A stretch of DNA of 64,000 nucleotides from a virus (IMGVR_UViG_3300021256_000064:64001-128000); one strand, 5' to 3'; positions 1,179 to 58,018 are shown, counted from the first letter of the stretch. Notes: generated by a model from the letters alone, not told the origin. A program made the numbers and translations.

Positions 1179-1253
1179 ATCACCCGACTGGGATTCGAAC
1201 CCAGGATCCGCGGTTTTAGAGACCGCTGTGTTAAGCCACTCCACTATCGGGCG
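1179..1253 (-). tRNA. amber suppressor tRNA, anticodon CUA (reads UAG), class I, A73, U8, G18G19
   Basis: anticodon stem GCGGT/ACCGC with loop CTCTAAA (plus-strand TAG at 1217-1219); acceptor CGCCCGA/TCGGGTG; T-arm CTGGG-(G)TTCGAAT-CCCAG. Confidence 0.75.
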
Positions 1254-24018: not shown

Positions 24019-24092
24019 TGAGGGTGAGGGGACTTGAACCCCCGACACCTAGATTAAAAGTCTAGTGCTCTAGCCAACTGAGCTACACCCTC
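24019..24092 (-). tRNA. tRNA-Lys(UUU) embedded in early region
   Basis: acceptor GAGGGTG/CACCCTC, D-arm GCTC-AGTTGGCTAGA-GCAC, anticodon stem CTAGA/TCTAG, loop CTTTTAA, T-loop TTCAAGT. Confidence 0.7.
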
Positions 24093-32439: not shown

Positions 32440-32940
32440 TATTGGTTAGTAGTGCCTACCTACTACCATGCTGTACTACATACATGTATTAACATATTAA
32501 TGTGTTAATGTATTAATGTTGTATTGTGTTAATGTGTTAATGTTGTATCACTTCACATCGTTACACTTCAACGTGGTGAAGTGATGCAGCTCAGCACTTC
32601 AACGTGGTGAAGCGTCACAGTGATACCACTTTAACGCGCTGAAGTGGCAATGCTTTAACGCGGTGAAGTGATAGCGCTTTAACGTACTAAAGTTTCATAC
32701 TTTAACGCGGTGAAGTGGCACCGTGGTGACGCGCGAAAAACAGCCATAAGTAAGACTTTAGCGAGGTGAAGTGTTAACGCGCTGACGCTTTAACGCGGTG
32801 AAGTGGTGACGCTGTGAAGCGCTGAAATCGCCCCTAAAATGGGACTTTAGCGCGGTGAAGTGTGACGCTTTAACGCGCTAAAATTTAACGCTTTAGCGTG
32901 GTGAAGTGCAAAAACGGCTCTCAACCAACCCGTTTCGAGC
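32440..32940. repeat. iteron array: about 11 degenerate copies of ACTTYAACGCGGTGAAGTG (partly palindromic ACTTCA-N6-TGAAGT) at irregular 20-45 bp spacing, preceded by GTTAATGT mini-repeats
   Basis: seen directly; noncoding 950-bp gap between gene blocks. Confidence 0.75.
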
Positions 32941-37048: not shown

Positions 37049-37091
37049 TTTAATATACTATTTTTTATATAAAAATAGAAAGGAGATTTTT

Positions 37092-38414
37092 ATGGCAAAG
37101 AAATTAGGACAAGAACCAGATAAGAATGGGAAATGTGCATGTTAGAGATGCGGTAAACGGATCGGTCAAATTAATTTTTACACATATAAAGATGGTAGTA
37201 AATGTGAGATTTGTAAAGAATGTTTAACTGCACATATTGATAATTTTGATTTCCATACTTTTGAATGGATTTTAGAAAAATTTGATGTTCCCTATATTCC
37301 TACTGAATGGAATGTATTAAGAGATAGAGCATTTGCTAAAGATCCTTATAAAATGAATGGAATGTCAGTTGTAGGTAAGTATCTTGCGAAAATGAAACTT
37401 AAACAATGGCGGGAATATGGATATGCAGATACTAAAAAAATTCAAAAAGAAATGGATGAAAAAAAGGCTAAAAAAGAATAGGCAGAAAAAGAAGAAAAGT
37501 AGCGATATGAAGCTGAATTGAAAGTTAAATTAAGTTAGGGAAAAATTTCACTTGCTGAATATCAAACTTTAGTTAGCACAGAAACCCAAAATAAAGAATT
37601 ACCTCAATGGGGAAATAATATAACTGGCTAGCATTTGGGTCAAATGTATTAGGCATATGGTCAACCGCAATCTTATGCTGATGCATTAAGCCAAGCTAAA
37701 AATCCATTTCAATAGCAGAACTTTTTATCTTAGAATGAACTGCCAGATGTTGGTTCAGATTTAAGTAAAGATGATAAAATGTATCTTGCGGTTAAGTGGG
37801 GTAGATTGTATAAACCTAGTCAATGGGTTGCTCTTGAACAGTTATATAATGAGTTTATGAGTTCTTTTGATATACAAGGTGCCGCCAGAATTGATACTTT
37901 AAAGAAAATTTGTAAAACTTCTTTAAAAATGGATTAGGCTATTGATTGCGGCGACATAGATTCTTATCAAAAATTATCTCGTGTATATGATTCATTAATG
38001 AAATCCGCAAAATTTACAGAAGCGCAAAATAAAGATAAAGAAGGTGCGGGAATTGATTCTGCTTCTGCTATTGTTGATTTTGTATAGAGTCATAGTGGAG
38101 AAATTCCACGTTATCATTGTGATGAACCTCAGGATATTATTGATCAAATTATTTTAGATTTAAAAGCTTATAATAAAAATTTAATTTATGAAGATAAATC
38201 TTTAGCTCAAGAAATTGAAAAATATCTTCAAGATAAGCGTATCTCTGATGAAATGAAGAAAGATAAAAAAGAAGCAAGAGCAAAAGGATTAGATACCGTT
38301 GAACTTGAAGATGATGATTTTGTAGATTTTAAAAATGTTTTAAATCATATGAAGACACATGATAATGACCTAGATGATACTTTAATTGAAGAATAGTATC
38401 AAAATAGGAGGATA
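37092..38414 (+). CDS. packaging-region protein with N-terminal zinc ribbon (possible small terminase by position); many in-frame TAG
   Basis: GGAG RBS, ATG 37092, TAA 38412; immediately upstream of TerL. Confidence 0.45.
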
Positions 38415-38421
38415 AAACAAG

Positions 38422-40159
38422 TATGAATTTAAAAGAATTACTTTAGTTATCCTCGGGGAGAGATTTTAGAAAACAAGGGCTATCTGAATAGCGATTACTA
38501 CAAGATATAGATGGATTAAGAGATTTAATTGCTTATTTTAGGGAATACCCTGATATATTTGTAGATTTTATAAAAGGAAAAGATAGTACATTTAATTTCT
38601 TATTTTATCAAAGAATATTTTTAAGAATTGTTATGCGGCATAGGTATGTGTACGCGACTTTTCCACGTGCTTATTCGAAGTCTTTTTTGTCAATGATGGC
38701 GTTGATGATAAGATGTATTTTATATCCTAACTCACATTTGTTTGTAACCACGGGCGGTAAGTAGCAAGCAGCCTCGATTACAATCGCAAAGATCTAGTAG
38801 ATATGTAGACTTATTCCTGGATTAAATAATGAAATTAATTGGGATCGTGGAGTTTCTACTAAATCAAAAGACAACGTAAAATATGTATTTAAAAATGGTT
38901 CAACTATTGATATTCTTGCGGCAAGACAATCTTCTAGAGGCCAGCGTCGAACAGGCGGATTAATGGAATAGTGCGTTCTTATTGATGGAGACATTTTAAA
39001 TGAAGTTATTATTCCTACTACCAACGTTGATAGGCGTCTCTCAGATGGCAGCCGCCACAAAGAAGAAAATGTAAATAAAAGTCAAATTTATATTACTACC
39101 GCCGGATGGAAAAATTCATTTGCTTATCATAAACTAATATAGATTTTAATTAATTCAATTATAGATCCTGATTAGTTTATGATTATGGGTGGAACTTATG
39201 AAACGCCTGTTGTTTCAGGACTATTAGATGAAGACTTTGTTTAGCAATTAAGATTACAAGGTACTTTTAATGATTAGTCGTTTAATAGATAGTATAGAAG
39301 TATATGGTCTGGAGATGTAGAAAATGCTTTCTTTTCTTCCGAAAAATTTGATAAATATAGAGTATTATTACAACCAGAATATGAGTACAGCGGGAGATCT
39401 TCTAAAAATGCATATTATGTATTTGGAGTGGACGTTGGGCGTGTAGGATGTACAACTGAAATTTGTGTTTTTAAAGTAACCCCACAAGTACAGGGGTCAG
39501 CTCATAAGACTCTTGTTAATATTTATACATATGATGCAGAACATTTTGAAACTCAATGTATTCATATTAAACATTTATATTATAAATATAAACCTCGTAG
39601 AATTGCGGTGGATGCGAATGGATTAGGTGTTGGATTAATTGATTATTTAATAAAACCGCAAGACACTGAAGATGGATAGTATTTACCTCCTTTTGGAGTT
39701 TTTAATACAGATGAATATCCTGAATATAAAAAATTTGTGACACCAGAGACTTAGAAAGATGTTTTATATTTAATTAAAGCTAATGCACCAATTAATACTT
39801 AGGCTTATAGTTATGCTCAAACTCAAATGTTTAGCGGGAAAATCAGATTTTTAATTGATGAAGGATTAGCAAAAACAAAATTAATGTCTACTAAGCAAGG
39901 TCAAAATATGAACATGGATGAAAGAAATGAATATTTACGACCTTTTATATTAACTTCTATTTTAAAATAGCAAATGTTAAATCTTGTTTAGGAAAATGAA
40001 GGTGTTAATATTATTTTAAAACAAAGTAATAGAAGTGTCAAAAAAGATAAATTTTCTGCTTTTATTTATGGTTTATATTATATTCGTTATGAAGAATAGT
40101 TAAATAAAAAGAAAAGAAAACGTAATATTTCTGACTTTTTATTTTTTACACAAGGTTAA
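38422..40159 (+). CDS. terL: terminase large subunit (Walker A ATFPRAYSKSF; RNaseH-like nuclease motifs FGVDVGRVG, IAVDANGLGVG); N-terminus shows a frame discontinuity
   Basis: body in frame 2 from 38432 to TAA 40157; strong RBS+ATG at 38422 is in frame 1 which hits TGA at 38485; in-frame TAGs throughout. Confidence 0.7.
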
Positions 40160-40221
40160 GGTCAAAAGTTATTAATTATATAAAAACTTTTTTTATATAA
40201 TTATAGTGAAGGAGAAAAAAT

Positions 40222-40578
40222 ATGCGAGCGTCTAGAGGAGAAATAAAAATAGAATAGATTTTACAAGCATCTGGATTAGAGTTCGCAGAAGAATACTCTT
40301 TTCCAGATTTAGTAAGTAATACTGGTCGTCCATTAAGATTTGATTTTGCGGTTTTTGATGATTAGCATAATATTGATTTTTTAATTGAATTTCAAGGTAT
40401 TCAACATTATGAAGCTAAAGAAAAATTTGGTGGATATAATGGTTTAAGAAAACAACAATATAATGATATGAAAAAAAGATAGTATTGTCGAGATCATGAT
40501 ATTAATTTAGTGATTATTCCCTATTGGGACTATGGTAGAATTAATTATGATTATATTCTTAATGCGGCAGGGTATTAA
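40222..40578 (+). CDS. small putative nuclease-like protein, 3 in-frame TAG
   Basis: GGAG RBS; frame consistent ATG to TAA. Confidence 0.4.
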
Positions 40579-40640
40579 AGAAGGAGAGGTATCTAAAGTT
40601 GATAAATCGAATGGCATAGATAAAGAAAAAAGGCTTTAAT

Positions 40641-42182
40641 ATGATTGGAACTGAAGATTACCAAATTCCCAATTAGGCTACTGGATATACACCAGTTGAT
40701 TTTGCAAAAATTCGAGTTGGAGTAAAAAATGTATCTGATGTTATTTTAAAACTTGGAGATTTAAGAAGAGTCAATCCGCAACTAGCAGATAAAGGACAAG
40801 TATTAAGAGCTATCCATTATGGTGATCTTAATAAGATGAGAGATATTTCTAATTATTTTTATAAAATTAGTGGTATTTATCAAAGATTATGTCGTTATAT
40901 GGCATATATGTATAGATATGATTGGCTTGTTACCCCTTATTATGCTTAGTCTGTCAAGCCTACAAAGATACTTGATGGTTTTAATAAAGTTTTAACATAC
41001 TTAGATAAATTTGAGGCTAAAAGATTTTTTGGAGACGTTGCTTTAAAAGTTATTAAAAATGGTTGCTATTATGGATATTTAATTGCTAAAAATGGAACTG
41101 TGGTAGTTCAAGAACTACCTCCGAGATATTGTAGATCTAGATATGTAGTTTCTAATGGGCAGCCGCTTGTTTAGTTTAATATGAAATACTTTGATGATAT
41201 GTTTACAGATGCGTAGCAACGTCTTAGAATGTTAAAAGTATTTCCGCCAGAATTTGAAAAAGGATATAAGTTGTATAAACAAGGAAAATTAAAGCCTGAT
41301 TTTCCTGGAGATGATTCTGGATGGTACTTATTGACTGTTGGTTCTGTTATAAAATTTAATTTAAATGGGGAAGATTTCCCGCCTTTTATTGCAGTTATTC
41401 CAGCTATTATTGATTTAGATGCAGCGCAAGATCTCGATCGTAGAAAGATGCAACAACAATTATTAAAAATTATTATTCAGAAAATGCCTATTGATAAAAA
41501 TGGAGATTTAGTGTTTGATGTAGACGAAGCTCAACAACTTCATAATAATGCAGTGCAAATGTTATCAAAAGCTATTGGTATTGATGTTTTAACTACTTTT
41601 GCGGAAGTTGATGTTGCGGATATGGCAGATAATCATACTACAACAACAACAGATGATTTAGAAAAAGTAGAGCGTACTGTTTATAATGAAGCAGGTGTTT
41701 CACAGATGCAATTTAATACTGATGGTAATATTGCTCTTGATAGATCTATTTTAAATGATGAAGCTTCAATGTGGAATTTAATACAGCAATTTGAAACATT
41801 TTTAAATGCTTTATTAACACCTTTCAATACAAGTCCAAAAAAAGTAACTTACAGAGCGCAAATTCTTCCTACTACGATTTACAATTATAAAGATTTAGCT
41901 AAACAATATAAAGAGCATACTCAATTAGGTTATTCTAAAATGTTACCTCAGATTGCTCTTGGGCAATCACAAAGCGCAATTTTAGCAACAGCTTATTTTG
42001 AAAATGATATTCTTGATTTAGTTAATGTCTTTATTCCACCATTAATGTCGAGCACTATGAACGCAGAAGTTCTTAATCGCAATAAGACTACTGGCGAGAC
42101 AAAATAGGGTGCGGGTAGGCCTGAGAAAGAAGATAGTGAGAAATCAACTAAAACAATTCAGAATCGTGAAAGTATGAATTAA
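40641..42182 (+). CDS. portal protein (by position and size, about 513 aa)
   Basis: ATG 40641 in frame with ORF 41229..42107; continues through TAG to TAA 42180. Confidence 0.55.
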
Positions 42183-42267
42183 AAATTTTTAAAATTTTTT
42201 GGACAAGAGTTATTAAGAATATTATTCAAATTTTTATTATATATGGGAATGAAAAGGAGATTTTATT

Positions 42268-43611
42268 ATGCATCAATCAGTTGCGACAATAGATTCTCCT
42301 GAATTTTTAAATCTTCAACCTCTTGATATAAATCCTTTAATGTCAAAATGTGATATTAAAGTTCTTTATGTTGGAACAAATAGAAACCGCAGTTTCATTT
42401 CTGAAGAAGTTGCGACAGAAATTGGTAAGACCCTTCGTGGGGCGCCAATTGTTGGATATTATAGAGATAATAAAGAAGATTTTACAGATCATGGAGAAAA
42501 AATAATTATTGATGATGAGGGAATCAAATTCGAGTGTCAAACAATTCCTTATGGATTTGTTTCTCCTGATGCTCAAGTGTGGTTTCAAAATTTCGAAGAC
42601 AGTGATGGAATGGGTAATACAGTTGTTAGAAAGTATCTTATGACAACTGGTTATCTTTGGACAGAACAATTTCCAGAATCCAGCTTACCTGTGAAAGAGG
42701 GACGTCCACAGTCAATGTAGCTTCAATAGAAATCAGTTCAAGGACATTGGGAAAAGAATTATGCTAATGGATTAGATTTCTTTATTATAAATGATGCTAT
42801 TATTCAAAAAATTTGTATATTAGGAGACGATGTTGAGCCTTGCTTCGAAGGCGCTTCTGTAACGGCTCCAGATGTAAGTACAAAATTTACATTAGACGAT
42901 AAGTTTACGCACACACTTTATAGTATGATGCAAGATTTAAAGAATGCCTTAAACGGAGGAGGACAACAGATGGAGAATCTTGAAAACACTGTGGTTGTTG
43001 AGAATGAAAATACTGATCCTGTAACTGAATTTACACAGGAAACGGCGGTTTCTGAAACAACTCCATAGGTTAATGATGAAGGAACTTCTGCTCCTGCTGA
43101 TTATGTAAAAAAGGATGAAGAAAAAGAAAAGAAATCTGCGGAAGAAAATGCAGATGGCGAATCTGATGAAAATTCTGAAGATGACACAGACGATGAAAAT
43201 ACTGATAAAGATGATGATGATAAAGATAAGAAAAATGCTAAGAAGTATGAATTACTTCAAGAAGAACTTGATTCTTTAAAGAATTCTTATACTGAACTTC
43301 AAAGTCAATATCAAGAACTTTTAAATTTCAAGAAAGAAATTGATAATCAGAAAAAGGATGCACTTATTGCTGAATTCTATATGCTTTCTGATGAAGATAA
43401 GGCTGATGTTATTAGCAATAAAGAGAAGTACACTTTAAGTGAAATTAAAGCAAAACTTTCAGTAATTTGTTTTGATAAGAAAATCAGTTTTTCAAAAGAA
43501 ACTGAAGAAAAAGAAGATAAAATTATTACTTATACATTAAATAGTGATAATGAAAACAGCAACTTACCAGATTGGGTGAAAGCTGTTAAAGAACAAGAAA
43601 AACTTGGTTAA
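42268..43611 (+). CDS. scaffolding / prohead-core protein (acidic D/E-rich and coiled-coil C-terminal half)
   Basis: ORF fragments 42268..42720 and 43381..43611 are one frame joined across TAGs. Confidence 0.5.
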
Positions 43612-43637
43612 TATTTTTATTAGGAGGATGCTAAAAT

Positions 43638-44216
43638 ATGGCAACGATTAAGAGAAAAGGTTATGGACAAGTTGAGCCTAATCACCTTTCTGGTATTGTC
43701 ACTGGTCAGATTTATGCTCAATTACCTGCAAAAGCTAACACTGCGGCAAGTGGCCAGCCAAGTAATGCAATTACTCAACTTGAGCAGGGTCAGTTTGCTA
43801 AATATGACTACGCTGCAGGTGAAGTAAATTTCACTGGTGATGGTGAATTTATGCTTGTTTACAATGAAGAAAAACTTTATGATGAAAGAAAACAACATCA
43901 TAAAGATTTTGTATATAAAGTGGACGATTTTACTGATGGAAAAATTTATCCACGCTTAATTAGAACTTATGTTGGCGATATTATGACAACAAATACTTTT
44001 GAAGCTAACACTTCAGATACGGCAGAAACTACTGGTGTTGAAATTTCTGAGGGTAATTATTTAGCGCCTGGAACTACAGGATTCTTAGAAGTAATTAAGT
44101 CTAGTGGTAGTGCTGCTTCTACTCTTTCTGGAGTAACAGGAATGGCTTGGAAAGTTGTAAAAATTTATACTATGCCCGATGGACAACAGGGTGTTAAAAT
44201 TCAGAGAGTTCAGTAA
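43638..44216 (+). CDS. head-associated protein (192 aa, no TAG)
   Basis: ORF track; between scaffold and capsid genes. Confidence 0.45.
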   Translation: MATIKRKGYGQVEPNHLSGIVTGQIYAQLPAKANTAASGQPSNAITQLEQGQFAKYDYAAGEVNFTGDGEFMLVYNEEKLYDERKQHHKDFVYKVDDFTDGKIYPRLIRTYVGDIMTTNTFEANTSDTAETTGVEISEGNYLAPGTTGFLEVIKSSGSAASTLSGVTGMAWKVVKIYTMPDGQQGVKIQRVQ

Positions 44217-44236
44217 TAAGGAAGGAGAAAAAAACA

Positions 44237-45298
44237 ATGGCATTAACAAAAGATCAATTAATTGAATTAGCTAGAGCCAATGCGAAAGCATCATTAAATC
44301 CTTCTACTGCTTTTTCTTTTGGTGGAGAAAAGCTTTCAGCAGAAGCTCTGAATAAAACTTTTATTAAAGAATTAAATGAACTTGGGGCAACTCCTCAAGA
44401 TTTTAGAGAGAATAAAAATCTTATTTATACATTAATGTAGGTAAGTCTTACAGAAGTTTTACCGCAAAAGATTATGCAATCTTATGGACAGTTTGCGGAT
44501 GTTCGTACTTTTGCTCAGGGAACAAAGCCTGTTTACAAAGTTAAAATTAGTGAAGCTTCAAAGAAGCGTGCTAAGCAGTTCGTAACTAGAGTTGGATTAG
44601 CAGGTAGATATGAAGTCTTCAAGCTTGATGGATATTCATTCGAAGTTGCTACAGCTGCATACGGAGGAGCTTCTCGTGTAGAATGGGAAGAACTTCTTGA
44701 TGGCCGCATGACAATGAATGATTACTATAGCCTTGTTCTTGAAGGAATGGATGAACAAGTTTATAAAGAAATCGCGAAAGCTCTTGAAGCTTTAATTAAT
44801 AGTATTCCTGCACTTCAAAAGGTAATTCATACTGGTTTCGACGAAACCAAGATGGATACATTATTAGCACTTGCTGATAGCTATGGCGGAAAGAGTACAA
44901 TTTATTGTACATTTGAATTTGCTTCAAAAATGCTTCCAGCTTCAAGTGCTAATTGGTCAGATGGAATGAAAGAAGAAATCTGGAATAATGGATATTTTGC
45001 TACTTATAAAGGACATAGAGTAATTATTCTTCCGCAGTCTATTGAAGATAATGTAGGTATGACAGATACTAGAATTAATAAAGTTATTAATCCTCAGCTT
45101 GCCTATATCATTCCGACTGGTTCAGAAAAACCTGTAAAAGTTGCTTTTGAAGGTTCTGCACAGGTTAAATCTTTTGATAATCGTGATTGGTCAACAGAAA
45201 TTCAGACTTATCAAAAATTTGGTGTAGCTACTTATTTAGTACATCCAGGTATTTGTATCTATAAGAATGAAGCGTTAAATCCTTATTATGGTGTATAA
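44237..45298 (+). CDS. major capsid protein candidate (about 353 aa, one in-frame TAG)
   Basis: ORFs 44237..44440 and 44474..45298 share a frame and are separated by a single TAG; position after scaffold. Confidence 0.55.
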
Positions 45299-45392
45299 TG
45301 GATAAGGATTAATTATCAATAAAATTACATAGGGGAGAATTGTTTTAATTCTCCCCTATTTTTTGTAAGTAGAGATAAAAGGAGATTTTTAT

Positions 45393-45971
45393 ATGATTGA
45401 TGAAAATAAAGTTATAAAAGTTATAAATAAATATAATGGAATTGTTGGGTATAAAGTTCCATAGCTTGGAGTTGAGAGAACTTTTCATCCAAAAGAAAGT
45501 AAGAAAATTACTTTTAATGAATTAGAAAAATTATCATTTTTACCCGGTGGAGAGTCTATCTTAAAAAATTATTTGGAAATTACTGATGAAGATGCTATTA
45601 TGGAATTATTTAATACTAAATTAGAACCAGAATATCATTATTCAGAATAGGATATAAAGACGCTATTAAGAGAAGGGACTTTAGATCAGTTTTTAGATTG
45701 TTTAGATTTTGCTCCTTAGGGAATTATTGATTTAATTAAAGATATAGCAGTTAGTTTACCTGTAAATGATATGGCTAAAAGAGAAGCTATAAAAGAGAAA
45801 TTGGGTTTTGATGTTACAAGAGCCATCGAAATTAAAAACACTAAGTATGATGGCGGTGATGAGGATGATTCAAAATCTGATAATCATAGAACTGGTAGAA
45901 GAACTGCTCCAATTAAAACTGGTGCGGCGCCCGCGCCAACAGGACGAAGATATACTTCAAATAAAGAATAA
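45393..45971 (+). CDS. hypothetical head/neck protein, 4 in-frame TAG
   Basis: GGAG RBS; same frame as ORF 45771..45971. Confidence 0.45.
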
Positions 45972-45992
45972 TTTTATACAGGGGGTATATAA

Positions 45993-46712
45993 ATGAATAC
46001 TACTTCTTTTTCACTTGTATATGACTCCTTTTTTTCAAAAATTACAGATGATATGTATTTATAGTTAAATGAAATAGATACATTCAGAATGTTATAGTAG
46101 TTATTACTTTCTGCTATTGAAAAATTTGAATTTCCAAGAGTTAATTTATGGAATTATGAGTTATTTGAAATAACAGATCAAACAACTTATAATGGAGTGG
46201 AGAGTAATCATCAAGATGCTTTAGCTATTGTTTATAGTGGTGGATGTTTTAATATTAAATTGACACATGAAGAGATAAATATTTTAGCTGTTTATATGAT
46301 CGTTGAATGGCTAAGTCAGCAGCTTGCTAGTGTAGAAAATACGCGAATGAAGTACAGCGGATCTGATTTTAAATTTACATCGCAAGCTAATCATATGCAA
46401 AAACTTTTACAATTAAAAAAAGATTATGAAAGAGAAGGCTTTCATCTTCAAAGATTATATAAAAGAAGAATCCAAGATAGACGAGGAGTTATGCGTTCTA
46501 CTTTTGGAGTTATTATGCAATCAACGCCTTATCCTTCAGATGAAAATTTATCTAAAGATAATTATGAAAACAGAAATGTTATTAATTACGAAGATTTAAT
46601 TAATAAACCAAAAATAGAGCATCATACATTAATTAATGATAAGAGTTTTAGTGATTTAGATATGACAAGAATTGATTATGATGAATTAGAAAGTATTATT
46701 TCTTCTTCATAA
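45993..46712 (+). CDS. hypothetical head-tail joining region protein, 2 in-frame TAG
   Basis: same frame as ORF 46197..46712. Confidence 0.45.
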
Positions 46713-46728
46713 AGGAGGCTGATAAAAT

Positions 46729-47136
46729 ATGCCAAAATATTTAGATTCAGATGGCGTTGCTTATTTATGGAGAAAATTAAAAAATAATTTAAGTAATAAA
46801 ATGGTTTATTATTCTAAGAAAAAAGCTGATTGGGATGCGGATCGAGATATGATTTCTTAGAAAGATGTTCTCTATATTTATTCAGATTATAAATTAATTG
46901 ACCAAGATGGAAAACAAATATATATGCCTGGAATAAAGGTAGGGGATGGGACTAGTTATTTAATTGATTTACCTTTTGCTAATTAGAATAAAAATAATGA
47001 GATTGAAGATTTATTATTAGATCATATTAATAATAAAATAGTCCATATTTCCGCAGAATAGAGAGATTTTTGGAATAATAAATTAAATTTATCATTAACT
47101 CCATAGTCATAGACTCTTGTTTTAAATAGATATTAA
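46729..47136 (+). CDS. hypothetical protein, several in-frame TAG
   Basis: GGAGG RBS; frame consistent to TAA 47134. Confidence 0.4.
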
Positions 47137-47149: not shown

Positions 47150-48754
47150 ATGGCTGATATTTCGAAGATTACGCTGCCTAGTGGAACTACGTATGACATT
47201 AAAGATGCTACTGCACGTTCTTTAATAGAATAGTTACAAAGTTATACTGATTATTTAGGTGTTTCTGCTACTGCGATTTCAGATGGATCAACCACAAATC
47301 CAATTAAAATTGGCACAGAAGATGTTACTGCAAAAAAAGGTAATATTGTCAATTATAATAGTAAAGAATTTATTTTTAATGGAACTGCTTGGCAAGAGTT
47401 TGGTGATTTAAGTGCTTTAGGCGATCTTGCTTACAAGGATACGGCAAGTGCAACATATAAGCCAGAAGGTACAATAACAGCGCCAACTTTTACTGGTAAG
47501 AGTTCTAATTTAACAATTACAACAGCTGATAATACCAGTGGAAATTATCAGCCAAAAGGTACTGTAAGTAAGCCTACTTTTACTGGTGAAAGCACAACTT
47601 TTACTGGTACATTTACACCAGAAGGCTCAATTTCAGTTACTACAAATGCAACTACAAATAAAACTGCAACTGTTAGTGCTGCAGCTTCTGGTACTACAAC
47701 TTATACTCCTGGTGGAGATATATCTCAAATTAACTTTACAGGTACTTCTTTTAGTTCAACTGGAAAATTTACGCCTACAGGAAGCGTTGCTTTAACTAAT
47801 ACTAATAAAACTGCGGAGGTTAGTCCTATAGAGGGAACAGCTACTTATATTCCTGGTGGACAAATTTCACAACCAACTTTTTCAGGTAATAATTTAACTT
47901 CTGAAGGTACTTTTACACCACATGGAAGTGTAAGTTTTACTAATGAAAATAGGACTACTACAGTTAGTGCTGCCTCTTCCGGTACCGCAACTTATACTCC
48001 TGCGGGGAATGTTAGTACACCAACTATAACCGTAAAAACAGCGGGATCAACAACTACAATTAAAAATCCTACTAGCGTTACTGTAGCAAAGACTGTAGTT
48101 GCAGCTGCTCCTGGGGCGACGGCTCCAAGTAATGCGATAACATATTATAATGTTGCAGATGAAACATTAAGTTTATATCAATTGGGATATACAACTGGAG
48201 CATCAATTACTACAAGTAATGTAACTGTCAAAAATGGAGACGCTACCTACGAATCTTCACAGCCTTCCTTTACTGGTACTGGAGCAAGACTTGTAACTGG
48301 TAATATTTCAGTACCGAAAAGTGCTTCTTTTACTGGCACCGAAGAAGATATAAGCGTTTCAGGAAAACCTTCTGGTACTGTTTCTAAACCAGAATTTACT
48401 GGTACTGGGGTTAGATTGGTTACTGGAGATATTCCTGTACCCACAAGCGCTTCTTTTACTGGTACAGAAGGAAATGTTAGTGTTAGCGGTATTCCAACAG
48501 GAAGTGTTTCTCAACCAGAATTTACTGGTACTGCGGTTAGACTTGTTACTGGAAATATCCCTGTGCCTGATACTTATACTGCGACTTGGACAGGGACTGA
48601 GGGAGATGTTTCTGTGTCTGGACAACCAAAAGGATCTGTTTCACAGCCAACCTTTACAGGAACAAAAACTCAAATTTCTGGTACAACAATCGCAAATGGA
48701 GATGTTTCAGCACCTACATTTACAGGTACTCAAAAAACTATTACAGTTAGCTAA
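47150..48754 (+). CDS. tail fibre protein with about 12 repeats of PTFTG / SVSQPEFTGT modules; conserved N-terminus MADISKITLPSGTTYDIKD
   Basis: same frame as ORF 48182..48754; repeat visible at nucleotide level. Confidence 0.6.
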
Positions 48755-48769: not shown

Positions 48770-49567
48770 ATGGCAGAAATATCTAAAATTACCCTGCCCA
48801 ATGGCAACACTTATGATATAAAAGATACTGTAGCATATGCACATGCCACAGATGCAAATAGGTTAACTACAGCAACATCAAGTGGTTTATATAAAATTGC
48901 CGCGACTGAGTATGGACATGTATCTTCGTTAACAGCAGTTACAAAAGCTGATATTACTGGTTTAGGAATTCCTGGGTCTGATAATGATACAAAAAATACT
49001 GCGGGTTCAACCAATTCATCTAAAAAATTATTTTTAATTGGTGCAGAAACACAAGCAGCTAATCCACAAACTTATTCACAAGATACTGCTTATGTTGGAA
49101 CAGATGGTAAATTATATTCTAATAGTAAAGTAGTATTAACTGGTGGATCTAATGCTTCATCTGCTGTTACTATTATACCGAGTACTACTGATGTATATTC
49201 GATGACTAGTGCGGGTAGTGTAACAGCGGGAACTAAAAATGTTCCAACAAAAATTGATACAAGTAAATTTAGCGGTGGTAGTTTTACAAGAGGAACTTTT
49301 AATCAAGGAACTTTGCCAACCCTAACTTTTGCTATGGATACAGTAGATACTAAAAGATTAAAAATTTCTTTTAATCAAGGTGCTTTACCTACACATGCGG
49401 CGGATAGTTTTACTGCTGCTGCAATTCAAAGTGGTTTTTATACTGCTGGTACAGCTAATACTCCAACTGCAGTTACGTTACCAGGAAGAAGCTCGGCTAT
49501 TAAAGCATGGACTGGATATACTTCAGCGACGGCGGCCGCGCAAACTTTCACTGGAAGTTCGAATTAA
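48770..49567 (+). CDS. tail fibre paralog (N-terminus MAEISKITLPNGNTYDIKD), Ser/Thr/Gly-rich
   Basis: ORF track 265 aa, no TAG. Confidence 0.6.
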   Translation: MAEISKITLPNGNTYDIKDTVAYAHATDANRLTTATSSGLYKIAATEYGHVSSLTAVTKADITGLGIPGSDNDTKNTAGSTNSSKKLFLIGAETQAANPQTYSQDTAYVGTDGKLYSNSKVVLTGGSNASSAVTIIPSTTDVYSMTSAGSVTAGTKNVPTKIDTSKFSGGSFTRGTFNQGTLPTLTFAMDTVDTKRLKISFNQGALPTHAADSFTAAAIQSGFYTAGTANTPTAVTLPGRSSAIKAWTGYTSATAAAQTFTGSSN

Positions 49568-49580: not shown

Positions 49581-51335
49581 ATGAGTTTACAAGTTTGGTT
49601 GCCCCTAAATGGGGACTTACATAATCAAGGAATTTTAGGTAATTTAAATTTCACTAAAATTGGTGAAAGCGGAACTATTATAGATACAAATGAAGGCAAA
49701 ATTGGAAAAGCAAAAGAATTTTCTGCCGCAGGATTAAGAGCACCTCTATCTTATACTCTTGGATCATAGCTTTCTTTTTCTTGTTGGATATATTATAATA
49801 GTTTTCAAACTAATAATGAATGGATTCTTGAATTAGGAGATACTAGTTCTGGATACGCCAATGCTTTATTTGGAATTGCTTCAACTCCGACTAAACTTGT
49901 AGTTTGTGTTGGAGGAGCTTATGATTCTGCAACTGTTCATGATTTTGTTATAAACACATGGTATCATTTAGCTTTTACATATGATGGTACTACATGGAAA
50001 ATTTATAAAAATGGTTAGTTAATAAGAAATTTTGATAAAAATATAAGTTCTATTACTTCTAGTTCAAATATAACTATTGCTTCTAATGTTGCGTCTTCCG
50101 CAACAAAACTTAATGGGCGATTAAATGATATTAGAATATATAATAATTGTTTATCTTAGCAATAGATTAAAGAAATTTCTAAAGGATTAATTTTACATTA
50201 TCCATTAAATAGACAATGTTGGGGACAAGAAAATTTATTAAAAGCATCAAACGTTCCAGTTACTAATAGTAACTATTGTATTCAATCTTATTATTTTGGA
50301 GATAATCCGCCACAAGCAGACGAGTAGGTTACGATTCAAATTAAAGGACATCTTGCTGATACAAAATCATATTGGTATGTATATAATAGCGGTGGTACTG
50401 TTCAATGTTTAAAAATATAGAAAAATACTTATAATGAAAATACTGGTATATACACTATGGCAGGGGAATGGAAAACTCAAAAGAATACTACAACTGCTGC
50501 GAACACTTATATAAATGTATATGCATTTACAAGGTCTCAATCGGGTGAATCTACAATTGAATGGATAAAATTAGAACGAGGTAATAAAGCAACTCCATGG
50601 TGTCCTAATGCGGCGGATGATATATATACTACATTAGATTTAGGTAATAATATTTAGTATGATATATCTGGTTATCAAAATAATGGTACTAAATATAATA
50701 TCACTTATGATTCTGATACACCAAAATATGATGTATCTTCAGTATTTACAAGTGTAGATACTAGTTATATAAAAGTAAATGAAAATAATTGGATACCGCA
50801 ATATCAAGAGGCTATGACAATAAATCTTTTTGCGTATTCTACAAATTGGGCATAGACCACAAAATTATATTCTTGTATGCAGACCGGTGGTTTTGGAACT
50901 AATGTTAGTAAGATATCTGGGTATGTAAGAATTGCGGTTTATGTAGCTACAAATGAATAGAGAACAAATCATAGTTATAAATATAGTAATCAAGAATTAA
51001 AAATTTCAGACTTACCTGCGGGTTGGCATATGCTTACTTTTATTTATGATTCTACTGGTAATAAAGTTTATGTAGATGGACAATTACATTCTAGTTATGC
51101 TTTTACTTCATATGGTATAAAATATAATACTAATGCAAAATTATTTTTAGGATGTGAGGGAGATGCCGCTTCTCCTACCGGTCCTTATTTTAATGGAAAA
51201 ATAAGTGATTTTAGATTATATGCAACAGCGTTTTCTGCTGAGGATGTATTATCACTTTATAATGATAAAGTTGATTTTTCATCTAGTGATATTGTAGGAG
51301 AAGGATTAGTAGGCTATATGATATTAAAATAGTAA
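49581..51335 (+). CDS. tail / receptor-binding protein with two concanavalin-A-like (LamG) lectin domains; ends TAG-TAA
   Basis: ORFs 50457.. and 51030.. in same frame (mod 3 = 0) as ATG 49581; motifs TWYHLAFTYDGTTWKIYKNG and WHMLTFIYDSTGNKVYVDGQ. Confidence 0.6.
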
Positions 51336-51405: not shown

Positions 51406-54400
51406 ATGGCAACTTATATTACAGATAAAATTGAATTTAATAATAATATATATAAATTACAAGATAGTGATGCCCTACCTCTTGCGGGAGGTAACGTAAC
51501 TGGTCCAGTGAATTTCGGTGATACGGTTACAATGGAATAGGCATCAGTTGGAGATCTTATTATTACTGGTAATGCAAGTTCCACTAATAACCTTCAAGTA
51601 AATACAATTAATGGTGTCGCAGTTGGTAATTCACCGAAATTTACTGATACTGGATGGATTCCTTTTGGTCAAGTAGATAGTACTTCAACAAGCACTGCTT
51701 TTACAGCTACGATAGATGGAATTACTGAATTAAAACCTGGAACTTGTGTATTATTAAAGAATGGAGTTGTTACTAGCGATTCTGGTTTTACTATAAATAT
51801 TAATAATTTAGGAGCAAAAAGAGTTTATAATAATCTGACTGCTGGCACAGCAGACACGACAATCTTTAATATACACTATACAATGTTATTTATTTATGAT
51901 CCAACTGTAACGATTGAGGATAGCGTTGGATGTTGGAATTGTTATAGAGGATACGATTCTAACACTAATACCATTGGGTATCAATTAAGAACAAATAATA
52001 CAGTATTAAAAACTTATGATAAGAGCAGATATTATAGAATATTTTTTACATCTGCAGATGGGACGCATTGGGTTCCAGCAAATACGGGAACAGATAACAG
52101 CTCTACATCCAAAAAAACAGTGAATCAAAGACCTATTAATCCCTTTGGTCGAATTGTTTATACATCAGCTTCAACTAGTTATGCAGCAGGAGCTGATATT
52201 GCAGCAACAACTATTTGGGATCAATATAATATGAATTTAGGATATTCATTTAATACTACTGGAGCAACGTTAACATTAACTTCAAAAAACCCTGTATATA
52301 TTAAATGTGCGCCACAATCAGACGGTTCTGTTGTCATAGATTCAACGACTCCTTTTGTGCAAACACTTCCTACTTCTGAAGATGGTAAAATTTATATATT
52401 TTTAGGAATTGCAACTTCAGCAACTAACGTCGAATTAATTATTAATCATCCTGTGTATATGTATAAAAATGGAAAAATTATACAATATACTGGTTCGGAG
52501 ACAGATGATTTATCTTAGATTGGCGGTAGAAATCTTTTAATTGGAACTGAGAAGAAACTTTTTTAGGGAGTTTCTAACACTCTTGAGATTCCTTATTAGC
52601 TGTCTTTATACGCACAAAGTAAGAATGTTTTTTATATACAAGATGAAACTTATACTATTTCTTTTGATTATACTGTTTCAAATGCTGGTGGTACAGTAGC
52701 TATAAAAGTTAATAATTTAGATGGAGTGCCTTTAGATATAGGAAATAGATATGATAGTTCTTTAAGTCAAAGCGTTACTGCGGTTAAAACAACATATAGA
52801 CGGACTGTGAAAATATCTCAAGCGCAAGCTAATAATGCTGGTAATGCAAGCTTTAAAATAGTTTTTAGCGGACTTACTTCAAATAGCACTGTTACAGTGT
52901 AGAATGTAAAACTTGAATATGGAAACATAGTAACTGATTATACACCTTCTCCTGAAGAGCTTGGATGGGAACCTCAAGTTATTGCACCTAGTGGAGAAAA
53001 AATTTAGTATCAAGGTGAAGAAGTTAATTTAAATATTTTAAATAAACCAAATGTCTATCTTGAATAGTTTAAACGTGCAGGTGGGACTTCAGGAAATAGT
53101 AATAGAAATGCATGGCAAGGTATGGACGTTTATGGAAAATATTTATTTAGGGCTAAAGTCGGAGGGGTAGTATATGTTTATGATTTAACTGAAAATACTC
53201 AAGATTTAACTATACTAGGTTCTTTTAGATTAGGTAGTTATAGAGCTAGTGCAGGAACAATGCATGGTATTGAATTTTCTACTTCTAATCATGCTGGAGT
53301 TTTAAGTTTTACTGATTATACAATTCCTGGTGATGAATTTCCTTTGTTACTTGTATCTGATGGAAGTAGCGTAGACACTGGTGATAATACGCAAGTAGAT
53401 GCTAAAGGATATTGTTATATATAGAGGATCCAAAGAACAAATGATACATCAAATCCTTTTACAAGTACTTTACTTACTATTATTGAATTACAATTTGTGA
53501 TGGCAAGTCCACAAAACCCTTGGGATTCTCAACACTTTTTCTATCCTTGGTGCCAATGGCATTATTATGATAATCATATATATAGTTTTGGACATTATAG
53601 GAGAGGGGCAGGTGGTACTACAAAAAAATTTAATGAACATATTTTGACTAGATGGTCACCTTCCATTGCGTCTTTACTTCCGCAAGGAAATGAAAGTACA
53701 CCTAACTATCAACTTTTTACACAAAATCAAATGGATAATCTATGGAGAATAGAATATACTTAGCAATATATGCAAGGTTGTAGATTTTATAATGATAAAA
53801 TTATTGCTACATTTGGTCATCCAGGTAAAGGTTTTCCAAATTATGTAATAATTTTTTCTATATCATCTAGTACTGTACTTAGTATTATAGACTTAACCAC
53901 AACATTAATATCTGCAAAAACTATGGAAGGATGTTTTGTTTATAATAATAAAATTTATTTAGGTTTTACAGGAAGTAATGATGATGATAGTAATCTTTAT
54001 TCTTTAACTCTAGTTAAAAATGAAAATAATGAAGTTGCTAGTCCGCTTGCACCTGCTACAACTAGTTCAAATGGTTTAATGACTGCTCAAGATAAAATAG
54101 CATTAAATACAGTATATTCTAATTATTTATTAAATCCATAGCTTCAACCTCCAACCGGATTGCCAGTAGATCCTTCTCTATCTATATTTCGTTCAATGGC
54201 AGTTTTTGGAGATAGCTATGCTAGTGGTAGCTTTTATTGGGCTGATAATAGTAATAGTGGTAAATCTAATGAATATGAAAGATCCTGGGGCAAACAAATA
54301 GGAAGACATTATGGTATAAATATAATGAACTATTCAGCTGGAGGATGGACTGCAAAAGATTTTATGTATGCTCCAACACGACAATAGGATCCAACTGGCT

Positions 54401-55062
54401 ATACATTATCAGATAACCATGGATGGATTAAATTTAATAGAGATTTAACTTCTGCTACTGATTCTGAAATTAGACATAGAGATTTATATATTTTAGCTTT
54501 TGGTATTAATGATTTTAGAATTATAAATACGGCAAATAGTGATTATAAATGGACAAATTATTATAATATTGATGATGATGATATTTCTTATTTTAATAAT
54601 ACCACTCAGTCAAATAATTCTCAATATTATTTAAACAGTCCAGATACTTTTTTTGGAGTACATAATAAAATCATTAGACATATTTTAAAATATTCTGAAC
54701 ATTCAGTAATTCTTTTATTATCATATTTAAGACCTGTTCCAATTGGAACCTATGATGTTGATAATAATTATAGTAGTGATGATCCAAGGTATTTTAAAGC
54801 TAAAAACGATGTAAATGGTAACTTGCAACAAATTGCTTCTCATTTTTCATCAAATAATGTTTTATATATAGATGTTAATGCTGATCCATTTTTTGCATCA
54901 GATTTTTATAAATCTGATGCATATAAAAATTATCATCCTGCTGCAATTGGATATGCTGGAATGGCTACAGCGATAGAAAGATTAATTAGTAAAGCAATGA
55001 GATAGCATCCAAATAAATTTTTATCAGTTGGTAGAGTAACGAATCCTACTAATTGGCTCTAA
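51406..55062 (+). CDS. giant tail fibre/tailspike (about 1218 aa) with C-terminal SGNH/GDSL hydrolase domain
   Basis: six ORF-track fragments (51883, 53122, 53497, 53770, 54160, 54823) all mod 3 = 1 with ATG 51406, separated only by TAG; N-terminus LQDSDALPLAGGNVTGPV; FGDSYASGSF, GGWTA, FGINDF, NYHPAAIGYAGMA. Confidence 0.7.
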
Positions 55063-55138
55063 TTTTAATTATAAAAATAATTATTCCATTTATCTACCGA
55101 AAATATTTTGTAGATAAATGGAATATAAAGGAGATAAA

Positions 55139-58018
55139 ATGGCAACTCAAATTGTAAACAAAATAAATTATAATGGAAAAGTATATAAGCTACAAGATAG
55201 TGATGCTTTACCTCTTGCTGGCGGTAATGTAACTGGTCCAGTAGAATTTAATGATTCAGTTACAATGTAGTAGGCATTAGTTGGAGATCTTGTTATTACT
55301 GGTAATGCGAGTTCTACTAATAATCTTCAAGTAAATACAATTAATGGTGTTGCGGTAGGGGCTAATCCGCGATTTACTGATACTACTTATAATCCAGTTA
55401 CAACTTCTGCAAATGGATTAATGTTAAAAGAAGATAAGCAATTTATTGATACATTATAGATTGGCGGAAGAAATTTATTAAATGAAACTGAAAGAAAAGT
55501 TTTTGAGAATGTTTCTAGCCCATTTGAAGTTTCTTATCCACTTTCTTTATATGCTCAAGATAAAAATGCTTTTCGTGTACAAGATGAAATTTATACTATT
55601 TCTTTTGATTATATAGTTTCAAATATTGGCGGAGTTGTGACTGTAAAGATTAATGATTTAGATGAAGTTTTATTGGATAAAGGAAATAAATATGAAAATT
55701 CAATAAATCAAAATATTACCGCAATTAAAATGACTTATAAACGAACTTTTAAAATAACTTAGGAACAAGCTAATAGTATAAATACAAGTTTTAAAATAGT
55801 TTTTAATGACTTAGTTTCAAATAATGTTATTATAATAGAAAATGTAAAACTTGAATATGGAAATATGGCAACAGACTACACTCCGTCTCCTGAGGAACTT
55901 GGATGGGAACCTTAGCTTGTTGCTCCTGAGGGAGACAAAGTTCAGTATTAGGGTGAAGAAGTTTCTTTTAATATTTCAAATAAGCCAAATGTTTATATTC
56001 AAGAATTTAAACGGGCAGGTGGCAATAGCGGAGCTAGTGATGAAGACGCATGGCAAGGTATGGACACCTATGGAAAATATCTATTTAGATCAAAAAAGAA
56101 TGGTACAGTATATGTTTATGATTTAACTGAAGATTCACAAAATTTATCAATTATTGATAGCTTTCAACTAGGAAGTTACAGAACCACTGGAAAAACAGTG
56201 GATGCATGGGGTCTAACTTTTAATGAACATAATCATGCTGGTGTTCTGTGTTTTACAGATAAAAAGTTTAATAACAATGATGAATTTCCTTTATTGCTTG
56301 TATCTGATGGATGCGGATCAGGAACTAAAGGAATAGATGGTCAAGGATTTTGTTATATATAGAGAATCCAAAGAACTGATAATAATTTTACCAGTACTAC
56401 CGTTGGAGTTATTTAGTTACGTTGGACAAAAGGTAGTGAGGCAGATTACGCTGATGCAACAAAAGGTCTTACAGAATATTTTTTCTTCCCTTGGTGTCAA
56501 TGGCATTATTATAATGGATATATTTATAGTTTTGGGCACAAAAGAAGAGGTACTGGTACTGTAACAAAAAAATTTAATGAACATATACTTACCCGATGGC
56601 ATCCAGACATTTTAACTTTAATTAACAAAAATGCCACAAATTCCAATCAAGCTAAAATAACTAGATTTTATTAGGGAACTTATACAACAAATGGGGCGTC
56701 TGTATCAATAATAGATAATCAATGGAAAATAGAATATGCTTGGGATTACTTAGATGGTTGCAGATTTTATGATGATAAAATTATTGCTACATATGGACAT
56801 GGGACATGGCTTCTTCCTAATAAAATTGTAATTTTTTCTTTAGCTTCTACAACAGCTATAGCTACTATTGATTTATCTAAAAATCCAGCTTCATCAACAA
56901 AATAGATGGAAGGATGTATTATTTATAATAATAAAATATATTTAGGATATAATGCAGATAGTATGCTTTATTTATTATCCTTTGTAAAAAATAAAACTGG
57001 TGAAATTGCAAATCCAATCTCTATTGCAACTCCTACTACAGATGGATTAATGTCTATTGCAGATAAAGTAATGTTAGATACAATGAGTGCAAGCTATGTA
57101 TTAAATCCAAATCTTTAGCCACCAGTTTTAGCAGTTGATCCTGCTATATCAGCTTTTCGTACTATTGGTATTCTTGGAGATAGCTATTCTTCTGGGTCAT
57201 TTTATTTTCCTGTTCCAGTGTCAACTGAACATCCCAATGGTTATTCTAATCAATTAGGTTCAAATGAATATACTTCAGATAGATATACTACTTCATGGGG
57301 AAAACAATTAGGTAGAATGACTGGAAGAGATAATGGAAAAAATGTAATGATCTATGCTAAAGGCGGATGGACAGCTAAAAAATGGTATTAGGATACAACA
57401 GGAAGTGGTCGTAGCTGGGGAAAGTTTGATCGAGATATGCAACCAAAAAATGGTACTGAAGGTGGAAAAGCAAAAGATTTATATATTATAGCTTTTGGTA
57501 TTAATGATTACAGAGAAATAGTAGAAAAAAGTGGACAAAATGTTGATTTAACATATGATTGGGGTGACCCTACTGATATTACAAACTATAGTAATATTAC
57601 AGATAGCACTAGTAATTTTTATTATTTAAAAGCTCCAAATACTTTTTTTGGTGTTTATAATAAAATTATTAGAAATATAAAAAGATGGACACCAGATTCT
57701 ATTATTATTATATTATCATATTTAAAATATGAATAGGGATTTGAAACAGCAAGAGATTTTACTAATCAAAAACTTATAAAGATTGCAAATACTTTTAATA
57801 ATGCAGGTGAATCTGTAGTTTATATTGATGTTAATGGTGATCCGTTTTTTAATTCAGATTTTTATAAGAAAAAAGCTTATATAAACCATCATCCTACTGT
57901 CATTGGGCATGCGGGTATGGCGACTGCAATAGCAAGACTCATTAGTAAAGCTATGCGCGAATAGCCAGAGAAATTTCTTACACTTGGTAAGATTGATGAT
58001 CCTGATTATATCACTTAA
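55139..58018 (+). CDS. paralogous giant tail protein (about 959 aa) with C-terminal SGNH/GDSL hydrolase domain
   Basis: fragments 56060, 56906, 57437 mod 3 = 2 with ATG 55139; LGDSYSSGSF, GGWTAK, FGINDY, NHHPTVIGHAGMA; N-terminus near-identical to 51406 gene. Confidence 0.7.

Follow-up and report, generated by a model that had tools for sequence, protein, structure and literature searches.

A 64,000-nucleotide stretch of viral DNA (IMGVR_UViG_3300021256_000064:64001-128000, hereafter the window) carries two neighbouring paralogous genes, gA (51406-55062) and gB (55139-58018). We regard their products, with a confidence moderately above even, as two alternative virion receptor-binding fibres of one phage, which bind a cell-wall glycan and de-O-acylate it. 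Behind a common N-terminal anchor, each protein contains a presumed β-sandwich module, a middle domain modelled as a five-bladed β-propeller and a C-terminal SGNH hydrolase domain predicted to be an active esterase. Both genes are interrupted by TAG codons, whose meaning is considered below.

Reading frames and shared N-terminal modules

Under the standard bacterial code, the late, plus-strand part of the window (35.9-64 kb) contains only short open reading frames (ORFs), but it becomes a compact operon of 21 genes when TAG is read through. The gA and gB frames then end at TAA and include 12 and 14 in-frame TAG codons, respectively. An earlier note, made from the sequence alone, had proposed these two frames, and translation and a stop-codon count reproduced their exact coordinates; its description of the proteins as “giant” is overstated for products of 1218 and 959 residues. 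Two further genes of the fibre cluster, at 49581-51335 and 47150-48754, contain ten TAG codons and one, respectively. All four genes are free of TGA and TAA interruptions and every true stop is TAA, so that a recoding of TGA or TAA in the gA/gB region was ruled out. The 21 late genes hold 127 TAG codons in all, whereas no TAG occurs in the 15 larger early ORFs examined on the minus strand.

The gB product is identical to a database protein (P0001) encoded on a 124.6 kb metagenome contig, which matches the window base for base across 11,081 shared bases. A blastn search of 50,697 phage records with the 6.6 kb gA-gB region gave no matches, and a tblastn search of the same records with gB returned three weak hits only, all to the presumed β-sandwich module and all in tail-fibre genes of Staphylococcus jumbo phages. 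Nothing was found by phmmer with gA among the PDB sequences.

The paralogy of gA and gB, as previously suggested, was confirmed by a BLASTP alignment with 50% identity across 914 residues (E=0), far beyond chance. The shared anchor was likewise recovered, the first 86 residues (YKLQDSDALPLAGGNVTGPV...) being 77–79% identical (77% by BLASTP, E=7e-36). This anchor of about 80 residues is also present on at least 22 other fibre-sized proteins, at 52–75% identity and with unrelated C-termini, some of which contain pectate-lyase-like or tail-collar domains. The anchor is followed in gA by an insert of about 260 residues absent from gB, for which neither Pfam nor PHROG gave a match and which is kept at 95% identity in P0003, the gA orthologue of a sibling strain. 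In gB, the anchor is followed by a short linker with a G-L-M-x-x-x-D-K motif, and a second GLM..DK linker comes after the presumed β-sandwich module. This module, which ends in KLEYGN..TDYTPSPEELGWEP, is 64% identical between the two proteins.

The C-terminal SGNH domain

The Pfam family PF13472 (Lipase_GDSL_2) matches gA at residues 933–1184 (41.5 bits) and gB at residues 679–925 (36.2 bits). Both scores exceed the gathering threshold of 32.9 bits, and the matches persist when TAG is translated as Glu. All the motifs that had been quoted for this domain (GDSYxSGSF, GGWTAK and the others) are present. The GDS of block I (gA Ser937, gB Ser682) falls at positions 1–5 of the profile and is invariant in eight of ten family members; block II, GGWTAK (Gly980/Gly743), and block III, GIND (Asn1035/Asn789), are invariant among close relatives, as is the His-Pro of block V (His1177/His918), which lies at the end of the profile. 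The Ser, the Gly, the Asn of GxND and the His are all invariant in gA, gB and six relatives with 50–66% overall identity, and TAG encodes none of the motif residues in either protein.

All structure models, for this domain and for the propeller, are of gB. AlphaFold2, run on ten homologues, gave a model of the SGNH domain with a predicted local distance difference test score (pLDDT) of 77 and a predicted template modelling score of 0.81, in which five β-strands alternate with helices as in the SGNH fold. A Foldseek search of the PDB with this model yielded 59 matches at E<=1e-3, and the best 50 of the 59 are almost all SGNH hydrolases. Among the matches listed, CE2 esterases come first (2wab, 9.4e-7), then CE3, Axe2 and rumen acetyl-xylan esterases, with the tail fibre gp63.1 of Escherichia coli phage G7C (4qnl, E=1.2e-4) at rank 26. 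The presence of an SGNH domain in both genes, claimed in the earlier note, is thus supported by the Pfam scores and by the predicted fold. SGNH esterases head the list in the structure search that the note had proposed as a check, and the fold and the Ser and His on which it had staked its proposal were all recovered.

Two observations weigh against an active esterase of this type. The TM-scores of the Foldseek matches are modest (0.44–0.50), which can be explained by long insertions in the domain. In addition, the position three residues before the His is occupied by Ile or Lys instead of Asp, so that the classical triad acid is missing; of the triad proposed earlier, Ser and His were borne out and the Asp of a DxxH motif was not. 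CE2 enzymes work with a Ser-His dyad, which is catalytically sufficient, and by analogy the active site of gA and gB looks like such a dyad. The CE2 esterases (CtCE2, 2wab/2wao; CjCE2, 2waa/2w9x) are also the best structural matches (E about 1e-6), lack Asp at the same position, and pair an accessory β domain with the esterase. They differ in that their identity to the fibre domain is 13–16%, and in that they are secreted bacterial plant-cell-wall enzymes with another domain order and context.

The missing acid could alternatively mean that the domain serves for binding or as a structural cap, with no catalysis, and that the lectin-like domains perform all receptor recognition. Such a scaffold can evidently serve without catalysis: the distant relatives P0033 and P0034, which have GDR for GDS and GYP at the His site and have lost the Ser, the His and the block II Gly-Gly, keep the fold and seem, judging by sequence, to have put it to a use that needs no esterase activity. 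The title of the CE2 entry 2w9x also names an active site with catalytic and non-catalytic binding functions. On the other hand, the dyad is sufficient in CE2, and the loss of Ser, His and Gly-Gly in P0033/P0034, compared with the strict conservation of the catalytic positions in gA, gB and their six relatives, suggests that catalysis is under selection in gA and gB. We consider a non-catalytic role improbable, and the SGNH tips are probably acetyl-esterases, predicted from conserved residues and the model to be active. The genes of P0033 and P0034 (L004/L005, 8001-9380) belong to a siphophage that also encodes a holin, a glucosaminidase and an amidase, and they closely follow its tape-measure gene on the 3' side.

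A predicted five-bladed propeller in the middle of the fibres

The middle domain of both proteins, which was missed in the earlier note, is modelled as a five-bladed β-propeller like the platform of the receptor-binding protein of Staphylococcus phage phi11, and by analogy it is probably a binding module. Pfam has no model for this domain. An exhaustive profile search retrieved 755 proteins at E<=1e-3, in some of which the match is confined to the GLM..DK linker repeat that closes the profile; 63 stretches among the family proteins retrieved span most of the propeller. Word-indexed profile searches added one protein for the propeller and five for the SGNH domain, and no more. In the remote homologues examined, the propeller is mostly the C-terminal head of a fibre-sized protein of 300–1300 residues, and one relative also contains a GDPD phosphodiesterase domain.

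The two best-conserved motifs of the family are W-Q-G and (M)-Q-G, and a profile built from 29 propellers matches phi11 Gp45 weakly (E=0.029) but exactly at its P-M-Q-G blade, at Met329-Gln330 once a 12-residue tag offset, deduced from the chain length, is taken into account. These are two of the residues said to line a proposed N-acetylglucosamine (GlcNAc) pocket, the Gp45 propeller being the proposed binder of GlcNAc on wall teichoic acid (PMC4901313). The second QG motif is MQG in gA and LDG in gB, a candidate specificity difference between the paralogues. Gp45 (equivalent to gp61 of phage 80alpha; PDB 5efv) is nevertheless a distant relative, with 10% identity, and its triple coiled-coil stem and two C-terminal tower domains are absent from gA and gB, which instead combine a β-rich anchor, the presumed β-sandwich module and the SGNH domain. 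Their N-terminal part, made of the anchor and the PHROG-38552-type module, has no similarity to Gp45. As the stem and towers are missing, gA and gB share a module with the Gp45 family but are not members of it.

Two points weigh against a simple binding role. The propeller model is of moderate confidence (pLDDT 65), and the fold also matches enzymes (GH43, GH32, sialidases and glutaminyl cyclase), so that the propeller could be catalytic rather than a lectin. A Foldseek search of BFVD with the propeller model gave weak, scattered matches only.

Exchange of the propeller and esterase among related phages

Gene order in the sibling strain, which belongs to the same sample series, agrees with that of the window. 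Its gA orthologue P0003 is 95–100% identical to gA up to residue 522, after which identity falls to 62% in the propeller and 50% in the SGNH domain. P0006, from a 143 kb phage, is the reverse case: its N-terminal parts are 55–70% identical, its propeller 92% and its SGNH domain 77%. These comparisons show, at the level of sequence, that the predicted propeller and esterase are exchanged among related phages as a single cassette. The propeller also occurs without the esterase: P0008, a protein of 1266 residues at the gB position of the 143 kb phage L002 (10001-13801), keeps the propeller and has no SGNH domain, and in P0007 and P0008 the propeller is combined with an N-terminal region that weakly matches Peptidase_M14 (zinc carboxypeptidase), a small unrelated C-terminal domain replacing the SGNH domain. 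The gene for a protein with two LamG domains lies directly upstream of the fibre genes in related phages (the position is occupied in L002, L003 and L015), and in a third relative it is followed by a pectate-lyase-type fibre on the common anchor. The LamG gene together with the variable anchor-bearing fibres of the relatives defines a conserved locus, with the breakpoint at the ...PSPEELGWEPQ... junction.

Proposed function of the fibres

In the mechanism that we propose, the shared anchor would dock the fibres, as trimers, to the virion. The presumed β-sandwich and the propeller would bind a cell-wall glycan which, by analogy with the phi11 Gp45 platform, could be a sugar on teichoic acid or a wall polysaccharide. 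The SGNH domain, whose fold and residues (a Ser-His dyad and a Gly/Asn oxyanion hole) are those of an O-acyl or O-acetyl esterase, would strip ester decorations from it. Coupled to binding, de-esterification would serve one of two ends: the receptor would be exposed or converted, or the virion would be set free to move on, in the manner of receptor-destroying esterases. Given the cassette exchange, two diverged copies would give two glycan specificities and a wider host range; dual specificity is plausible from the divergence of the sequences. Taken as a whole, the earlier picture of SGNH esterase fibres stands, without its triad Asp, its collagen-like neighbour, its Gln reading of TAG and the term “depolymerase”, which does not suit an esterase.

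Phage fibres and spikes that bear SGNH esterases are well documented, with examples in Pectobacterium phage Possum, the epsilon15 tailspike and Klebsiella prophage receptor-binding proteins. The G7C fibre gp63.1 similarly has an SGNH esterase beside binding modules. However, gA and gB match it only at the level of the fold, with no sequence homology to it or to similar fibres outside the SGNH fold; the known examples of this type belong to phages of Gram-negative hosts and act on O-antigen or capsule, whereas the host is here probably Gram-positive; and in gA and gB the esterase follows a predicted five-bladed propeller and lacks the triad Asp.

A closer parallel with respect to the host is the tail-associated lysin gp59 of phage 80alpha (PDB 6v8i), for whose C-terminal SGNH domain a role in wall penetration has been proposed (PMC7048315). 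By extension, the domain in gA and gB would remove O-acetyl groups of peptidoglycan (6-O-acetyl on N-acetylmuramic acid) or other wall esters, so that a muramidase or peptidase could cut. A weak profile match links it to gp59 (6v8i_AE, E=0.034), and the probable Gram-positive host fits such a role. GH25 enzymes belong to the muramidase class that is blocked by O-acetylation, and a related phage encodes a GH25+CHAP lysin; moreover, the M14-peptidase-like region of the propeller protein at the second fibre position of L002 suggests a wall-active enzyme. Nonetheless, gp59 is the central hub, with a gp27-like N-terminal domain, and its SGNH activity is only putative, while gA and gB would place the domain at the distal end of a peripheral fibre, next to exchangeable binding modules and not on a Tal or hub protein. 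In fold, the domain comes closest to polysaccharide acetyl-esterases (CE2, CE3, Axe2) and to gp63.1, a fibre that deacetylates O-antigen, and two diverged copies suit variable surface glycans better than an invariant peptidoglycan. We therefore consider a penetration aid unlikely, though less so than a non-catalytic cap, and favour receptor-binding fibres that de-O-acylate their glycan.

Propeller platforms are already known in staphylococcal receptor-binding proteins, and a literature search found no description of a propeller and an SGNH domain fused on one fibre, nor of the gA/gB sequence family. The two proteins would add a Gram-positive, gut or rumen example of receptor-binding proteins that de-O-acylate the receptor instead of cutting it. 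A swappable cassette of a phi11-like propeller and an SGNH esterase on a common anchor would be useful for predicting or engineering the host range of uncultured Bacillota phages, and such cassettes could be a source of new carbohydrate esterases.

Genome context, host and position on the virion

The fibre cluster follows YonD/YonB-type head genes and three small genes, and is followed in turn by genes for proteins of 109 and 327 residues and by YomW, YomV, YomU_Tube and YomO. These Yon and Yom neighbours belong to Pfam families named after proteins of the Bacillus prophage SPbeta. On the 3' side of YomO, the operon meets converging dUTPase, NrdG and NrdD genes. Pfam gave no matches for the head genes at 35918-47136, and scans for promoters and terminators showed no excess compared with shuffled sequence.

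The terminase is 74% identical to a homologue on an unannotated human-gut contig, 44–46% identical to those of large phages of Enterococcus, Geobacillus and Alicyclobacillus and of phAss-1 (44% for the latter), and 33–35% identical to YonF-type terminases of Brevibacillus, Bacillus and Lactococcus phages. The cultured phages among these relatives all infect Bacillota, and phAss-1 is the founder of a TAG-recoded group of gut phages with predicted Clostridia hosts (PMC10607447). Related phages contain lysis genes of the Gram-positive type, and the only named propeller relative given by a cluster look-up comes from a Clostridiaceae metagenome-assembled genome. The contig names (SHIW14, WILK20, STEW19) point to studies of the rumen. 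A scan for the propeller motifs in one genome per bacterial species gave 74 pattern matches, none of which was confirmed, so that no prophage or host was found in this way. The phage, about 125 kb in size and related to SPbeta and phAss-1, most probably has a Gram-positive Bacillota host.

The earlier note had called the two products tail proteins. Their role as virion fibres agrees with the gene context and the shared anchor, but a tail location does not follow, the genes lying between those for the head and connector and those for the tube. Without a tape-measure or baseplate gene anywhere in the 64-kb window, a neck or collar location is as compatible with the gene order as the tail tip, which weighs against placing the fibres at the latter. 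They could then be neck, collar or head fibres used for reversible first contact, and a weak BFVD match to the neck appendage protein of phage GA-1 points the same way. In L002, by contrast, the fibre cluster borders directly on several large genes in converging orientation (1009, 667 and 1032 residues) that may encode the tail tip, and the distant SGNH relative described above lies just downstream of a tape-measure gene; besides, fibre genes are often unlinked from baseplate genes. A neck or collar position is possible, though we lean against it. It concerns location only and is compatible with binding and de-esterification by the two fibres.

TAG probably encodes glutamate in the late genes

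The earlier note had translated TAG as Gln. Readthrough itself is supported, as the frames are open only when TAG is read as a sense codon, but the TAG sites align with Glu and not with Gln. The terminase gene contains 17 TAG codons, and in the 74%-identical relative, which uses the standard code, the corresponding residues are Glu in 12 cases, Asp in four, Arg in one and Gln in none. In an alignment with seven terminase homologues, three TAG columns are Glu in all seven. The TAG in GGLME-TAG-CV aligns with GLMEECV, GLIDEVI and GLIEEVI, at the second acid of the Walker B motif, hhhh(D/E)-E. This acid is the catalytic glutamate (MIYID-E256 in T4, ICWVE-E119 in Sf6), and the E179Q mutation in the lambda terminase is lethal and leaves <1% of the ATPase activity (PMC6379665; PMC5737356). 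Across all late genes shared with the closest standard-code relative, the 61 TAG sites correspond to Glu 33 times, to Asp nine times and to Gln three times, and the log-likelihoods, computed with substitution frequencies from those same alignments, are −114 for Glu, −155 for Asp and −177 for Gln. As a control, the same procedure applied to the TAG codons of phAss-1 favoured Gln (−44, against −56 for Glu), in agreement with the published assignment for that phage (PMC10607447).

A candidate decoder is present in the form of an amber-suppressor transfer RNA (tRNA) with anticodon CUA. Its C1-G72 pair and A73 resemble the tRNA-Glu genes of phAss-1 (G1-C72, A73) and are unlike the phAss-1 tRNA-Gln (A1-U72, G73) and the phAss-1 suppressor (U1-A72, G73), and in the D-arm it hardly differs from phAss-1 tRNA-Glu(CUC). 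Overall tRNA sequence identity did not tell a Glu from a Gln origin, which could be distinguished by the 1-72 pair, the discriminator base and the D-arm only. The label “tRNA-Pyl” that ARAGORN gave to this gene was dropped, as it rests on the anticodon alone. The gene belongs to an array of ten tRNAs on the minus strand (309-5134; Leu-CAA, Thr, Met, Sup-CUA, Glu, Asp, Leu-UAG, Asn, Ile-UAU and Arg-ACG), and a lone tRNA-Lys gene lies at 24018-24092 on the same strand; array and tRNA-Lys fall in a region in which no TAG occurs in the 15 larger ORFs that were examined.

It is fairly probable that in the fibre genes and the whole late operon TAG stands for Glu, read by an amber suppressor derived from tRNA-Glu (CUC to CUA; C1-G72, A73) that is probably charged by the host glutamyl-tRNA synthetase (GluRS) and not amidated. 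Most Bacillota lack a glutaminyl-tRNA synthetase (GlnRS) and obtain their Gln-tRNA through amidation of Glu-tRNA-Gln, in which the U1-A72 pair is recognised; a CUA tRNA with C1-G72 would, on this hypothesis, stay charged with Glu. Several observations weigh against a uniform Glu reading. The signal from the fibre genes is mixed, TAG alternating only with GAA/GAG in about seven columns and only with CAA/CAG in about six, and for the TAG codons of the sibling strain Gln fits slightly better. From the 64 kb of genome at hand, a second suppressor or ambiguous decoding may be involved.

Near 36 kb (1-35800 versus 35900-64000), there is a joint change of strand, GC skew and codon usage. The CAG:CAA ratio is 46:17 in the minus-strand early genes, where GAG makes up 32% of the Glu codons, whereas in the late genes CAA:CAG is 255:50 and GAG accounts for only 15%. 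The late genes seem to avoid NAG codons while using TAG. The composition of Glu and Gln codons in late versus early genes was not decisive for the identity of TAG.

Among the closest described systems is phAss-1 with its “code 15 clade” (Babkin et al. 2023, PMC10607447), which has genomes of about 125–136 kb, late genes interrupted by TAG, a suppressor tRNA-CUA, a terminase related to the one described here, predicted Clostridia hosts, and multi-domain fibres with enzymatic heads. Its fibres are, however, described with pectate-lyase domains, the words “esterase” and “SGNH” being absent from that paper, and its TAG aligns with Gln and its suppressor has U1-A72 and G73, in contrast to Glu, C1-G72 and A73 in the window. 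A survey of recoded phages found only TAG-to-Gln and TGA-to-Trp changes in phages whose code differs from that of the host (10.1101/2021.08.26.457843), and a literature search for TAG-to-Glu in phages found no report. If the Glu reading is correct, amber reassignment in phages is not confined to Gln, and the meaning of the codon has changed within one phage lineage. Database translations of the fibre and other late proteins, all made with TAG as Gln, would then be wrong at 1–5% of their residues, and automatic “code 15” translations would mis-assign catalytic residues, for instance by giving Gln for a Walker B Glu. Reassignment to Gln has been explained by the ease with which GlnRS is hijacked, and a corresponding explanation would be required for hosts in which Gln-tRNA is formed via GluRS and GatCAB.

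Other features of the window

Table 1 Features located in the window, with the fibre genes and their domains first
Feature	Coordinates	Strand	Evidence and remarks
gA	51406..55062	+	Fibre protein, 1218 residues; 12 in-frame TAG, TAA stop; paralogue of gB
gA residues 1-86, N-terminal anchor	51406..51663	+	YKLQDSDALPLAGGNVTGPV...; 79% identical to gB residues 1-86
gA residues 87-347, insert	51664..52446	+	Gap in the gA/gB alignment; no counterpart in gB
gA residues 348-522, presumed β-sandwich (carbohydrate-binding-like) module	52447..52971	+	PHROG 38552 (6e-10), PHROG 1775; ends ...KLEYGN..TDYTPSPEELGWEP
gA residues 523-880, modelled five-bladed β-propeller	52972..54045	+	WQGMD, NHAGV, FPLLLVSDG, QWHYY, MQGCRF, MEGC
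gA residues 909-1218, SGNH hydrolase domain	54130..55059	+	Ser937 (54214-54216), Gly980, Asn1035 (54508-54510), His1177 (54934-54936)
gB	55139..58018	+	Fibre protein, 959 residues; 14 in-frame TAG, TAA stop
gB residues 1-86, N-terminal anchor	55139..55396	+	Alignment with gA
gB residues 108-257, presumed β-sandwich module	55460..55909	+	PHROG 38552 and 1775; ends KLEYGN..TDYTPSPEELGWEP
gB residues 258-625, modelled five-bladed β-propeller	55910..57013	+	Second QG pocket motif is LDGCRF (MQGCRF in gA)
gB residues 655-959, SGNH hydrolase domain	57101..58015	+	Ser682 (57182-57184), Gly743, Asn789 (57503-57505), His918 (57890-57892)
TAG at the Walker B catalytic-glutamate position of the terminase (GGLME-TAG-CV)	38969..38971	+	Glu in this column in 7/7 homologues
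Amber-suppressor tRNA, anticodon CUA, C1-G72, A73	1180..1253	-	ARAGORN; Rfam tRNA, 62.8 bits
LamG protein, 584 residues, two LamG/concanavalin-like domains	49581..51335	+	Laminin_G_3, two stretches, E=1e-31
Fibre-like protein, 265 residues	48770..49567	+	First ~19 residues (MA-ISKITLP-G-TYDIKD) common with the product of the gene at 47150
Thr/Ser-rich repeat fibre, 534 residues	47150..48754	+	Eight P-x-F-(T/S)-G motifs; 42-residue (126-bp) tandem repeat at 48269-48564

Three further genes of the fibre cluster lie upstream of gA (Table 1). In the first of these towards gA, the two concanavalin-A-like lectin domains that had been proposed were found as two Laminin_G_3 stretches. This LamG gene ends in ...K-TAG-TAA (51330-51335), a recoded TAG standing directly 5' of the true stop, so that the last residue of the protein depends on suppression. 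The gene at 47150-48754, for which neither Pfam nor PHROG gave a match, had been described as a collagen-like fibre with PTFTG repeats; it does encode a repeat fibre, as the eight motifs indicate, but a collagen-like nature was ruled out, the longest Gly-X-Y run being two triplets. A second N-terminal anchor, different from that of gA and gB, is shared by this gene and the next one (47150-47210 and 48770-48830), with about 19 nearly identical residues of the form MA(D/E)ISKITLP(S/N)G(T/N)TYDIKD.

Finally, a cluster of iteron-like direct repeats is found at 32484-32908, amid short ORFs only. It consists of 24-nucleotide units such as CTTTAACGCGCTGAAGTGGCAATG (about four copies), a related 23-nucleotide unit (about three copies) and 8/24-nucleotide TTAATGTG repeats, and might serve as an origin of replication or in regulation.

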